Shown: positions 9,382 to 61,370 of the stretch, piece after piece
How positions within the stretch are numbered: position 1 is the stretch's first letter
Layout: each line of letters starts with the position of its first letter
Source of the DNA: Octopus vulgaris
Taxonomy: Eukaryota
Reading direction: 5' to 3'
Assembly (NCBI GenBank): GCA_951406725.2
Contig: OX597843.1
Location: 17,670,001 to 17,734,000, forward strand
Length of the DNA: 64,000 bases
Notes under the pieces: model-generated
Told to the model about the DNA's origin: nothing
The model's database searches: none
The model's input: only the letters and a program-made list of their open reading frames with translations
Position numbers and translations under genes: made by a program

Positions 9382-9740
9382 GAGCGTAGGCTCGAAACGT
9401 AAAAGACTTTTTCAGTTCCTGAGCGTTATACTAATACATTTGTTTGTTTTGTACAACACCTGTTTTCGTCTTTTGTTTTTTTCGTAAACTCTCCCAATAT
9501 ATATATATATATATATATATATAACAGACCGCCATGTTAAATCGTTAGCTCCTGCACGCATTATTTTTCTCTCCTTGTTTCTCTCCTTCTTTCTTTTCTG
9601 CGTATCTTTCTGTCGAAGAGCGTAGGCTCGAAACGTAAAAGATTTGTTTTATTTCTATTCCTGAGCGCCATACTAATACAATTGTTTGTTTGTACTCCAC
9701 CTACCTTCGTCTTTTGTTTATTTTCGTAAGCTTCCCGTTA
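9382..9740 (+). mobile_element. Partial tandem of family B pLTR-like elements
   Basis: Truncated copy 9382-9497 starting at HHR stem II, then a (TA)n spacer, then a fuller copy 9523-9740. Confidence 0.75.
9604..9643 (+). ncRNA. Minimal hammerhead-like motif, U6 variant (family B)
   Basis: ATCTTT-CTGTCGA-A-GAGC(GTAG)GCTC-GAAAC-GTA-AAAGAT; 6-bp stem I. Confidence 0.7.
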
Positions 9741-9970
9741 TATATATATATATATATATATATATATACACATATACTGATGCTTTGACTAGGATATTTT
9801 TGTTTTTATATCACCATACATACGTAAATACATACGTACATACATAGATCTAGGTGTGTATATGCAAAATGTAGTCATATATATGTATGTATTTACACAC
9901 ACACACATATAATATTATATTATATATATAAATAGATACCTATATAGAAAGATAGATAGATAGATATGTT

Positions 9971-10455
9971 TCTTTATTAGCCACACAGGGCTGCCCACAG
10001 ACAGGACAAATTACAAGGTAGAGCTTTTCTTTTGGGGGTAAAAAAAGGCGGTTTGGTTTTCGATCAAAAGGGGTCGTAAAAGGAAAGAAAGAGGACAAAA
10101 AAGAGGGGGGGGATAAAATTTTTTAAAAAAAGGGGGAAAGGAAAAAAAATTGATCAATAGGGATCGTTATCACAGAAATGTCAATATGAAGTGTAAAGGG
10201 GAGGACAGGTGAGGTTTACCCGTGGAAAGAAAAGCCTACGGAAAAGACCACGGTAACCTCGGTCAATGAAGTCACATGTTATATTTCTTTTTTTTTTTTT
10301 TGCAAATAAGCAACTCTCTGTATTAATTTTTACGGTTCATAGAATCATAGTCAAGGTGGCTTCGTCATTCATACGTGCCATCCTTGCTACATTCACCCAT
10401 CTTTTTTTAAAACATTCACTAGACAAAACTTGCCTCTCTACTCTCACTTTCCTCT
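9971..10455 (-). mobile_element. 3' fragment of a Tx1/L1-like LINE inserted in (GATA)n
   Basis: Minus translation RKVRVERQVLSSECFKKRWVNVARM..IL*; 3' UTR ends in AATAAA; GATA repeats on both flanks. Confidence 0.6.
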
Positions 10456-11027
10456 ATAGACGGATAGATAGATAGATAGATAGATAGATAGATAGATAGA
10501 AACCTATATAGATAGATAATATAGATAGATAATATAGATAGATAGATAGGTAGATAGATAGGTAGATAGATAGATAGATAGATAGACAGATAGACAGACA
10601 GACAGGTAGATAGCTAGAATAAAGTTTAATACCAACCCCATCTTCTCATTAGTTAATTAAAATGAAGATGGACTAGATGAGAAGCTTTATAGTTCACACC
10701 GATCATTTAAGCCGATCCTGCATCGGTCCATCGTCTGTGGGTTCCTGTGCCACGGGTCGTGGCGCACCTCGCAGAAGTGTCTCGTCAGGCGATGTTATAA
10801 CAAATGTTTCGCTCGGTTTTAATACTGCGTGTTGTTAGGGACTGTAGGTTTAAGCAGCTGGGCAGGAATCATCGGCTAACTACGTCTTAATTAATTACAC
10901 GCAAATTACACACACACACACACACACACACACACACACACACACACACACACACACACACACACACACTCACATATAACTTAGATATGTTTCGACCAAT
11001 GATTGGTCCAAGCCGTATCTAACTTTT

Positions 11028-11416
11028 GTGGAGGCGCAATGGCCCAGTGGTTAGGGCAGCGGACTCGCGGTCATAGGATCGCGGTTTCGATTCCCAGACC
11101 GGGCGTTGTGAGTGTTTATTGAGCGAAAACACCTAAAGCTCCACGAGGCTCCGGCAGGGGATGGTGGTGATCCCTGCTGTATTCTTTCATCACAACTTTC
11201 TCTCACTCTTACTTCCTGTTTCTGTTGTACCTTGTATTTCAAAGGGCCGGCCTTGTCACTCTCTGTGTCACGCTGAATCTCCCCGAGAACTACGTCAAGG
11301 GTGCACGTGTCTGTGGAGTGCTCAGCCACTTACACGTTAATTTCACGAGCAGGCTGTTCCGTTGATTCGGATCAACCGGAACCCTCGTCGTCGTAACCGA
11401 CGGAGTGCTTCCATCC
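11028..11416 (+). mobile_element. tRNA-derived SINE, full length with TSD
   Basis: A box TGGCCCAGTGG, B box GGTTTCGATTCCC; 10-bp TSD ATCTAACTTT at 11017-26 and 11417-26. Confidence 0.9.
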
Positions 11417-11960
11417 ATCTAACTTTAATAGCACCACCTGATAGGATTAGCTAAATTCTTTTTAAGTCAAATTTTGTGGTATCTTGGTCCATTCGAGTAA
11501 GGAATTCCTGCTGAGTGAGTTGTACCCAAGTACAGGTGGCTTATCTGGGATTAATTGAAGAAATTTGCCCACATTCCATTTAAGGGTGATGGGATCCTTT
11601 TTATACTTTGTTGAAGCAAAGACATTGGTGTGTTTTCGTCCCCGTAACTTAAAGGTTAAGCTTACAAAGAATAAGTCCTGAGATTGATATCTTCGACGAA
11701 AGGCGGTGCTCCAGCATAGCCGCAGTCAAATGATTGAAAGCAGTAAATGAATAAAGGAATATGTAGATTACCATATAAGTTTAATCCATACAGGAAGAGA
11801 GACACAACTGTATGTATATGCGTGCGTGTGTAGAAAAACTAAATATACACACGTATATATACATATACACACATATATGTATATGATTACACATATTTAT
11901 ATATTTGCGTTCATATATATATATATATATATATATATATATATATATATATATATATAT

Positions 11961-12170
11961 AAAATTAATGCAAACAAGAAAGCACAAAAAAAACACAACA
12001 ACGCGAGGACGTGGAACAAGTATAGTATTATTGAACGCTCAGGAAAGAAGGAAAGAAGGAGGGTTTAACGTTTCGAGCGGAGCTCTTCGTCGGAAACATA
12101 GGAGAAGGAAAGATCCAGAGAAGAGAAGACGGAGGAAAAAAAATCGCCAACGGTACACACGCGGTCACGT
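11961..12170 (-). mobile_element. Family A pLTR-like element with C4-variant HHR at 12063-12097
   Basis: GTTT-CCGACGA-A-GAGC(TCC)GCTC-GAAAC-GTT-AAAC; flanked by (TA)n; partial copies at about 14105-14195, 15208-15305 and 53635-53700. Confidence 0.8.
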
Positions 12171-59988: not shown

Positions 59989-60090
59989 CAACCACTCTTC
60001 AGTTATCGACCCGGCCAGAGGGTCAAGCGCAATTTCGGCCATCATCGATAATACTGATTCCACTTCTGGGGGCACCGGCAAGAAACCTGC
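59989..60090 (-). CDS. Possible isolated exon (102 nt, phase 0-0)
   Basis: Acceptor TGTTTTCGTCCCATTCCAG|, donor TTG|GTAACT; only one open frame: [34 protein letters not shown]. Confidence 0.4.
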
Positions 60091-60430
60091 CTGGAATGGG
60101 ACGAAAACATAAGCAAACCAGACAGGCTCGAGACGTGTCCGATAGTGAACGGATGAGGGAGAAAACAATAAACAGAATAGAGACTCCGTGCCCCACGAAG
60201 GCAACAATTGAAATGATAATAACACATATACAGCAGACAAAGCCTTAGGGCTGTAAGACAAAAATGGGTAAGGCGGAATGAAAAATTGTCGTAAACGACT
60301 ATAGGCACGGGAAGGGTAGAGCGAAGAGCTTAGAAGATCGATATATGCGACGGGCTTCTTTCAGTTTCCAGCCATCAAATCTAATATACATATATATATA
60401 TATATATATATATATATATATATATATATA

Positions 60431-60805
60431 GGCGTAGGAGTGGCTGTGTGGTAAGTAGCTTGCTTACCAACCACATGGTTCCGGGTTCAGTCCCACTACG
60501 TGGCACTTTGGGCAAGTGTCTTCTACTGTAGCCTCGGGCCGACCAAAGCCTTGTGAGTGGATTTGGTAGATGGAAACTGAAAGAAGCCTGTCGTGTATAT
60601 ATATATATATGTGTCTGTTTGTTCTCCCAACATCGCTTGACAACCGATGCTGGTGTGTTTACGTCCCCGTAACTTAGCAGTTCGGCAAAACAGACCGATA
60701 GAATAAGTACTAGGCTTACAAAGAATAAGTCCTGGGGTCGATTTGCTGGACTAAAGGCGGTGCTCCAGCATGGCCGCAGTCAAATGACTGAAACAAGTAA
60801 AAGAG
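60431..60805 (+). mobile_element. Major SINE family copy
   Basis: Colinear with the family sequence; diverged copies follow at about 61560-61865 and 61963-62283. Confidence 0.9.
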
Positions 60806-60824
60806 TATATATATATATATATAT

Positions 60825-61113
60825 GGAGGCGCAATGGCCCAGTGGTAAGGGCAGCGGACTCGCGGTTTCGATTCCCAGACCGGGCGTTGTGAGTGTTTAT
60901 TGAGCGAAAGCCCCTAAAAGCTCCACGATGCTCCGTCAGGGGGTGGTGGCGATCCCTGTTCTACTCTTTCACCACAACTTTCACTCCCTCTTTCTTTTGT
61001 TGGCCTGCTTGCTTAGCCAGCGGGGTAGCGTCATTTGAAGGCTAAAACAATGCGAAGCTCATTGTGATCAGCGATATGTAGCAACATCTGGTCGGTCACT
61101 GTGATCACGGTGA
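60825..61113 (+). mobile_element. tRNA-derived SINE (head as 11028, different 3' part)
   Basis: GGAGGCGCAATGGCCCAGTGG head; ends gtgatcacggtgat before (TA)n. Confidence 0.85.
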
Positions 61114-61174
61114 TATATATATATATATATATATATACACTCATACACGTACATATACACACACATATATATAT

Positions 61175-61370
61175 AGTTGAAATTTACAGAAAAACAAAAG
61201 ACGAAGACAGGCGTGTGAGCAACAAGCAGGTGTATTAGTTTGACGCTCGGGAAAATGAGAAAGTCTTTTACGTTTCGAGCCTACGCTCTTCAACAGAAAG
61301 GAATAAGAGAAAATAAACAGAGAAAGGATGAAAAAAAAACTTGTGGATTTAGCGATTAACCATGGCGGCT
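61175..61370 (-). mobile_element. Family B pLTR-like element with HHR-like motif at 61265-61300
   Basis: CTTT-CTGTTGA-A-GAGC(GTAG)GCTC-GAAAC-GTA-AAAG on the minus strand. Confidence 0.7.

Follow-up and report, generated by a model that had tools for sequence, protein, structure and literature searches.

Minimal hammerhead ribozymes reside in the end repeats of Penelope-like elements (PLEs), where they occur in thousands of copies per genome, mostly as solo motifs, and are recognized by a short helix I, a helix III that has no loop and is palindromic at positions 15.2–16.2, an unpaired base between positions 9 and 10.1, and the pair G10.1–C11.1 (Cervera & De la Pena 2014, PMC4209133). They are proposed to act as dimers, and their activity in vitro is low even with a canonical core (PMC4209133); the role of hammerheads in PLEs is described as an open question (PMC8557442, PMC11167929). 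In a stretch of 64,000 nucleotides of the Octopus vulgaris genome (assembly GCA_951406725.2, contig OX597843.1, positions 17,670,001 to 17,734,000; hereafter the window), two families of short repeats, A and B, carry hammerheads of this kind in which a normally conserved core base is replaced, U4 by C in family A and A6 by U in family B. The core-variant lineages are a new variant form of the already known PLE minimal hammerheads. C4 and U6 are carried by the most successful lineages, including an autonomous element, and the likeliest account suggested by their sequences is that fast self-cleavage is not needed.

The octopus motifs resemble the published PLE hammerheads in all of the traits listed above, from the short helix I to the proposed dimer action (PMC4209133). 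They differ in that the core is fixed in the descriptors of that paper, where only U3–A8 covariation is reported, whereas the dominant lineages here carry U4 to C or A6 to U; moreover, helix II comprises 6–8 bp in several of the published families and 4 bp here. The Anolis Poseidon PLE, PAc, likewise has a hammerhead near the end of an element that encodes reverse transcriptase (RT) and a GIY-YIG endonuclease, and its protein-dependent cleavage, together with insertion unaffected by hammerhead mutants, would make it possible for a core-mutant hammerhead to persist (PMC11167929). However, PAc has a consensus core with mutants made in the laboratory, whereas the mutant cores described here are natural and fixed in whole lineages. 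Rare natural departures from the core have been described, including a U4C viroid and a low-activity A6C phage variant (Perreault et al. 2011, PMC3088659); these concern single genes or isolates, in contrast to about 10,000 or more copies here, and section 8 and the discussion of that paper contain no A6U variant. An additional base close to A9 has likewise been described (De la Pena & Flores 2001, as cited in PMC4209133). Animal retrozymes of the non-long-terminal-repeat type are, like family A, short non-coding hammerhead repeats that are thought to depend on PLE enzymes (Cervera & De la Pena 2020, PMC7229834; Li et al. 2026 preprint), but they are described as forming tandem arrays with type-I hammerheads that give rise to circular RNAs, whereas A and B are mostly dispersed single units, truncated at the 5' end and ending at (TA)n. 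Finally, superfamilies of short interspersed elements with conserved central domains combine a conserved module with unrelated heads and tails (PMC4758252), as A and B share the hammerhead and a downstream box; in contrast to those superfamilies, no tRNA-like head was found here, and the shared module is a ribozyme motif tied to a PLE rather than to a partner among the long interspersed elements (LINEs).

Hammerhead motifs were confirmed at all seven starts claimed in the initial annotation, four in family A (12063, 31648, 41891 and 49264) and three in family B (9604, 30461 and 61265; Table 1). Every full motif consists of a stem I of 4–6 bp, the strand C-N-G-N-N-G-A, one unpaired A and a 4-bp stem II closed by G10.1–C11.1, followed by GAAA, a loop-less ACGU, H, and the return strand of stem I. 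The shared 3' half, GAGC-N3/4-GCUC-GAAAC, has six exact matches in the window against 0.00 expected from 100 shuffles, and two further family-A copies differ from it by one base, G12. A search by structural descriptor, with no more than one mismatch permitted in the core, retrieves 14 motifs in 264 kb (the window and the next 200 kb), of which seven are C4, six U6 and one canonical; each of 10 shuffles gave none. In an alignment of 67 copies with 50 distinct rows, at least 90% of copies have A in the column between A9 and G10.1 (column 15), the G10.1–C11.1 pair is G-C in 44 of the 50 rows and G-U in five, positions 15.2–16.2 are C-G in 40 of the 50, and 86% of helix-I cells are paired, helix I being 4–6 bp long in the window copies, all of which have ACGU directly after GAA. 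A location in the end repeat of an element with RT and GIY-YIG was found for family B; for family A it was not found (0 of 53 copies). Judged from these sequence features, the motifs are minimal, helix-III-less hammerheads of the PLE type, an identity that we regard as firm.

The extra A after A9, which had been noted together with the altered core as unusual chemistry, is indeed present; however, it is a published hallmark of PLE minimal hammerheads (PMC4209133), and both the unpaired A and the loop-less ACGU helix III are known hallmarks of the class rather than oddities. Rfam reported no hammerhead family in the whole window (gathering mode) or in 9300–12300 (E up to 10), its matches in the window being microsatellite-driven microRNA look-alikes; this silence is expected, since the Rfam hammerhead models need a helix III, which is absent from the PLE class.

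Individual copies depart from the family descriptions in a few respects. The 9604 copy has the extra A, stem II GAGC/GCUC, GAAAC-GUA and a 6-bp stem I, with a (TA)n run after its 3' end. An eighth copy, absent from the initial list, is a truncated one at 9382 that lies in tandem 236 bp upstream of the 9604 copy, with (GT)n before it and (TA)n after it, followed by the element at 9575. The 61265 copy belongs to an older B subfamily, with core CUGUUGA and the box CCCGAGCG. The family-A reading with GAAAC, the loop TCC and the end AAAC holds at 12063 and 49264 but not at 31648 and 41891, both of which have GCTC-TAAAC; the loop at 31648 is TCT, and the copy at 41891 ends in AAAT, so that its stem I is closed by a G-U pair (AAAU).

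The consensus core, C3-U4-G5-A6-N7-G8-A9...G12-A13-A14...A15.1/U16.1-H17, is broken at one position in every window copy that carries the corresponding strand, by C4 in family A and by U6 in family B, and two of the four A copies additionally lack G12, the general base of the hammerhead. Exact patterns were counted in the 2.8-Gb assembly that contains the window, so that the counts of repeats are lower bounds; reversed-pattern controls all gave 0. The shared 3' half has 32,953 matches, the C4 core 9,696, the U6 core 11,898 and the canonical core CUGAYGA 5,087, of which 213 have the 4-nt loop of the B type and about 4,874 belong to a sister subfamily of family A, designated A2, in which the consensus core is thus found. 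Some 10,000 or more copies in the genome carry C4, and likewise U6, which is also the mark of an autonomous element; both changes are lineage-wide single substitutions in the catalytic U-turn and not scatter. The claim that U4 or A6 is replaced family-wide is upheld for U6, which is present in all 25 motif-bearing copies among the 30 sampled through coding sequence (see below), while C4 is limited to subfamily A1, in view of the canonical A2 copies. The rare G12 to U change, shared by the copies at 31648–31682 and 41891–41925, has 133 copies genome-wide, so that the two window copies are sporadic and a G12-to-U subfamily was rejected. These two copies, separated by 10 kb, have neither homologous flanks nor a further private change in common; the shared substitution could stem from a single mutant source nearby that inserted twice, or from gene conversion.

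Family B corresponds to the final ~215 nt of the end repeat/3' untranslated region (UTR) of an autonomous PLE; in the window, it is represented by short pieces of the 3' terminus whose 5' ends vary. Upstream of several B copies there are long frames with RT motifs and a GIY-YIG motif, and a 26-nt pattern coding for part of GIY-YIG has 1,124 genome matches. Among 30 loci sampled by this pattern, blind to the hammerhead, 25 have the motif 0.6–1.2 kb downstream on the same strand, with the cores CUGUUGA (22), CUGUCGA (1), CCGUUGA (1) and CUGUGGA (1), i.e., U6 in 25 of 25 and the canonical core in none; the other five have no motif within 1.5 kb. The frame stays open for at least 500 amino acids up to the edge of the locus in four of the 30. 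At locus L275 the complete layout comprises (TA)n, an end repeat (1028–1662), a frame of 1,119 amino acids (2203–5559), a second end repeat (5605–6242) and (TA)n, and the end repeats, of 642 bp, are direct, 98.3% identical and each furnished with a CUGUUGA motif. The frame, which has its GIY-YIG part at the C-terminal end, matches RVT_1 with 31.8 bits, above the Pfam cut-off, and has 209 relatives at E<=1e-5 (best E 3.9e-236), which carry precomputed RT and in some cases also GIY-YIG domains, the few named ones being from marine animals; four copies of this coding PLE are 95–98% identical. PLEs of the Hydra clade are shorter than 3 kb, with a single open reading frame and no CCHH motif in the endonuclease (PMC8557442); L275 falls outside this description, since it measures ~5.2 kb and its endonuclease has, as read by eye, C-x2-C inside the GIY..YIG core and then H..H. 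Several PLE clades are known to favour (TA)n, a preference that has been connected with the zinc-finger linker (PMC8557442). In the octopus copies, the 3' ends lie at a fixed distance from (TA)n and the 5' ends are scattered, as expected if copying starts at the 3' end and 5' parts are lost by truncation. Many tandem copies of a CAUACUAAUACA-like unit also lie in the 3' UTR of this coding element (L275:5600-5900), and the ACUAAUAC motif of these repeats also forms the conserved box downstream of the hammerhead in A and B.

U6 is not a recent feature of family B. In 11 copies of the B3 type that were not chosen by motif, position 6 is U in nine, C in two and A in none, which indicates that U6 is old and lineage-wide. 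A full-length family-B anchor pattern has 170 matches, and about one canonical core is found among the 100 listed. The canonical B-type copies that were fetched are ~20% diverged and scattered among old copies on the flank tree; a canonical share of 1.8% (213 against 11,898) at that divergence is as expected from random U-to-A change, and a canonical B master was therefore rejected. A direct pair of motifs 4,157 bp apart on contig C10 was also considered as an element and rejected, because it belongs to a 3-kb tandem segmental duplication (L207:1802-4785 and 5960-9001; G000:C10:11946500-11955500) that is 96.7% identical. Each duplicate holds a B-like hammerhead with a canonical core and a stem I of GUCCUUU/AGGGAC, in which the pairs are kept via G-U wobbles.

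Family A is an element of ~205 nt for which a coding relative was not found, and it shares with family B only the hammerhead, the downstream box (CCYGAGCG..A.A.UAAUAC) and the (TA)n target. An anchor pattern outside the motif has 5,809 matches, and a hand tally of the 100 listed gives the cores CCG in 68, CUG in 22, CCA in seven and others in three. Approximately 18 of the 22 CUG rows carry linked flank markers (CCUUUUCC upstream and CUUCUUCCCUUCCUUCC downstream, often with GUA), so that copies with a canonical core form a genuine subfamily, A2, rather than mere products of CpG decay at C4-G5; how far such decay goes is gauged by the seven CCA rows. C4 defines A1, which is about twice as numerous as A2, while the flank divergence is alike (median 6.8% and 7.4%, respectively). 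As both family B and the hammerhead consensus have U4, C4 appears by parsimony to be the derived state. The GIY-YIG peptide lies within 1.1 kb upstream of none of 53 A-type copies versus seven of 113 B-type copies, which argues that family A is non-autonomous. A second, unrelated PLE family (L201:630-5900, at G000:C16:20834300-20841800, also L202-L206) has a frame of 781 amino acids with a C-terminal GIY-YIG, an upstream frame of 359–479 amino acids and 456-bp direct end repeats (99.3% identical), lies in (TA)n, and has copies that are 93–98% identical. It was rejected as a partner, since it lacks an A/B-like motif and shares sequence only in its TA repeats; motif descriptors detected neither a canonical nor an A/B-like minimal hammerhead in this family.

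The motif is better kept than the sequence around it. Between the majority lines of subfamilies B1 and B3, 35 of 36 motif positions are identical against 61% of the flanks (P ~5e-7), the sole difference being position 6, an artefact of a B3 sample enriched for canonical copies; between A and B, the figures are 27–29 of 36 against 43–47% (P 6e-6 to 6e-4). Within each family, variation in the motif is two to four times lower than in the flanks, as judged from 67 copies that were picked regardless of the motif (Fisher p 1e-3 to 1e-11). While A1, B1 and B2 are young (~6–7% flank divergence), the older B3 group keeps the motif at ~22% flank variation, and all core positions other than 4 and 6, stem II and stem I are constant across subfamilies with diverged flanks. 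Better conservation than the flanks between families points to selection on source copies. Families A and B are real sister families with one common hammerhead-like module, as proposed, and that part of the earlier suggestion of selection on a fold with unusual core chemistry which concerns conservation is supported, whereas the extra A and ACGU do not qualify as unusual chemistry. When five subfamily majority lines are folded jointly with RNAalifold, only stems I and II remain, and 92% of stem cells pair in the 67-copy alignment. Stem II is invariant, as noted initially, and never covaries. The outer pair of stem I alone changes on both sides (CG in 34, GC in 10 and GU in two of 50 distinct rows); the compensatory G-C/C-G swap in stem I is thus real, but amounts to one event in one of 11 pairs.

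Most copies are single and lie between microsatellites, and head-to-tail arrays of the retrozyme kind, with units of 170–400 bp that each hold a hammerhead, were not encountered. A second motif within 1.5 kb was found in 30 cases over 150 loci, in mixed orientations, and the window contains one partial tandem (9382/9618). Head-to-head inverted pairs of hammerhead elements 140–260 bp apart occur at L208 (G000:C4:149564800-149566600), L134/L135, L096 and L124, which match the inverted 5'-truncated partner described for PLE insertions in a figure legend (PMC8557442, Fig. 2). Assembled contigs of sequencing runs, whose RNA status is a guess, show repeat-collapsed depth when compared with the window, and their joints that appear to go back are explained by two tandem copies.

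Table 1. Elements and fragments of families A and B in the window.
Feature	Position	Strand	Details
B-like 5'-truncated copy	9382..9526	+	starts at G10.1 (GAGCGUAGGCUC GAAAC GUA AAAG), without CUGNNGA strand
Family B (subfamily B2) terminal PLE fragment	9575..9748	+	motif 9604-9643, core CUGUCGA (U6)
Family A (subfamily A1) non-autonomous element, full length	11941..12168	-	motif 12063-12097, core CCGACGA (C4), loop UCC
Family B (B2) fragment	30431..30605	+	motif 30461-30498, core CUGUCGA, loop GUUG
Family A1 element	31522..31769	-	motif 31648-31682, core CCGACGA, loop UCU, G12 to U (GCUC-UAAAC)
Family A1 element, 5'-truncated	41740..41959	-	motif 41891-41925, core CCGACGA, G12 to U
Family A1 element, full length	49138..49385	-	motif 49264-49298, core CCGACGA
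Partial A-like fragment, 3' part only	53628..53810	.	without motif; similar partials 15158-15306, 14065-14245
Older B3-type fragment	61150..61337	-	motif 61265-61300, core CUGUUGA (U6), downstream box CCCGAGCGUCAAAC

From published mutagenesis, slow or absent cleavage is predicted for both the C4 and the U6 cores. All single mutants of the CUGA turn are low in a comprehensive activity screen (PMC9901934), and the natural A6C phage variant cleaves at <0.1 per minute (PMC3088659). The natural U4C viroid hammerhead is much reduced in vitro and is stated to be sufficient in vivo (PMC3088659). In the Anolis Poseidon PLE, catalytic hammerhead mutants left insertion in vitro unchanged, and cleavage needed protein (PMC11167929). 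A split or rewired core that would use the downstream CCUGAGCG box was rejected: no pairing links the sequences that precede this box to the strand following the cleavage site, and 5,087 copies fit an ordinary type-I layout exactly.

We consider it probable, on these sequence comparisons, that A and B carry PLE-type hammerheads on (TA)n-inserted retroelement fragments, that C4 and U6 weaken cutting, and that the motif is retained for some step of retrotransposition in which cutting need not be fast. The elements would be copied from their 3' end by target-primed reverse transcription, and the enzyme that moves family A in trans would be that of the B type or a related one. Cores with C4 or U6 would cleave slowly or not at all, and the role of the conserved module would be that of a signal, through its fold or its sequence, or that of a slow ribozyme assisted by protein. 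Several observations weigh against this reading. The GIY-YIG domain of the L275 frame scores 17.1 bits, below the Pfam cut-off, the motif IIYCISCSLCHSLYIGQTGRR being visible after a C-x4-C-x2-C linker, and an autonomous partner for family A was not found. The conservation tests lean on majority lines from partly motif-chosen samples, with flank alignment uncertain in T-rich sequence, and the contrast among the 67 copies mixes several source lineages and includes only copies with a recognizable motif. Structural covariation is a single A/B event, which is too little for a covariation test, so that a test of the R-scape type on genomic copies cannot succeed; furthermore, the predicted folds are no more stable than shuffles (z -0.9 to -1.9). 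Given the U4C viroid, C4 may also be a working ribozyme that is still under selection for cleavage. More specifically, and only tentatively, an apparently intact autonomous PLE and ~12,000 fragments may have carried A6U through subfamilies with the other core bases fixed, with a U4C hitch-hiker that outnumbers its canonical sister 2:1, and selection may have acted on the hammerhead as a module for folding or recognition, or as a slow ribozyme dependent on protein, rather than for rapid self-cleavage.

The main rival, which we regard as rather unlikely, is that the C4 and U6 cores are still working ribozymes, active as dimers, in tandem transcripts or with protein, and kept for RNA processing; they would then represent functional variants of the core not described before. 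Core positions other than 4 and 6 are held in all source lineages, including G12 (133 G12 to U copies against tens of thousands), and neighbours able to pair are common, as the second motifs within 1.5 kb indicate. The U4C viroid works in vivo and A6C activity is low but detectable (PMC3088659), and the Poseidon PLE hammerhead cleaves only with protein (PMC11167929). However, activity is low for every single mutant of the CUGA turn (PMC9901934), and even the canonical PLE minimal hammerheads cleave poorly in vitro (PMC4209133). Moreover, truncation of B copies at the cleavage site is no commoner than at a control TA in loop II (six versus eight of 35 distinct sites, tallied by hand from the 100 matches listed); 5' ends at the cleavage site were therefore rejected as a mark of cutting in vivo, both positions fitting TA microhomology.

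It is improbable that the motifs are dead passengers, which lost their function with the core mutation and appear conserved through youth and shared descent. PLE clades without canonical hammerheads proliferate well (PMC8557442), single copies decay freely, by CpG losses and by G12 to U in two window copies, and A1, B1 and B2 are young, as would suit such passengers; however, B3 keeps the motif at ~22% flank variation in 11 copies not chosen by motif, with no A at position 6, and the excess of motif over flank identity, both between B1 and B3 and between A and B, speaks against mere descent.

That the motif is no hammerhead but a DNA or RNA signal, for example an RNA polymerase III (Pol III) promoter resembling a B-box (GGCUCGAAAC, compared with GGTTCGAANCC for the B-box), or a plain extended hairpin, is scarcely credible. 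Rfam gives nothing even at E up to 10, and in the predicted lowest-energy fold of family B, U4-G5-U6 pairs with A15.1-C15.2-G16.2, favouring a rod-like hairpin; against this, a perfect canonical core stands in the same frame in 5,087 genome copies, the PLE end repeats in which the motif occurs are the very place of PLE hammerheads (PMC4209133), the Rfam models demand the helix III that this class does not have, and ARAGORN, a search that covers tRNA heads, finds no tRNA and hence no tRNA-like head in the window.

The surrounding DNA is AT-rich (66% A+T) and animal-like, with abundant TA and CA microsatellites and dispersed repeats. More than 15 copies of another dispersed repeat, ~400 bp long and 80–96% identical, are spread over the window, often close to hammerhead elements (60405–60825, 32180–32590, 41041–41470, 21468–21883, 38515–38960, 49662–49959 and others). 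Positions 19321–20900 are a tandem array with a 40-bp period and units ~95% alike, and 18512–19027 and 23672–24254 are microsatellite-like inverted repeats of ~500 nt that are 82–86% complementary at a spacing of 4.7 kb. Pfam found no domain in six long frames of the window. The 200 kb downstream of the window contain a LINE with a frame of 1,149 amino acids (endonuclease/exonuclease/phosphatase, RVT_1 and zf-RVT; L020:2140-5586, minus strand), a second LINE fragment (L019:8298-9998, plus strand) and a remnant of a mariner-type transposase (L014:2096-2995, minus strand).

The genome thus offers a natural comparison between the canonical A2, the U4C subfamily A1 and the A6U lineage with its autonomous element, to all of which the stems and the (TA)n target are common. 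If the variant cores are active, the accepted core consensus is too narrow, and searches with fixed-core descriptors miss tens of thousands of motifs per genome. If they are slow or dead, their success would imply that the elements can do without fast self-cleavage in vivo, and would suggest another role for the conserved motif. Should the reading as a fold or recognition module be true, these lineages would amount to a natural knock-down experiment on what PLE hammerheads are for.

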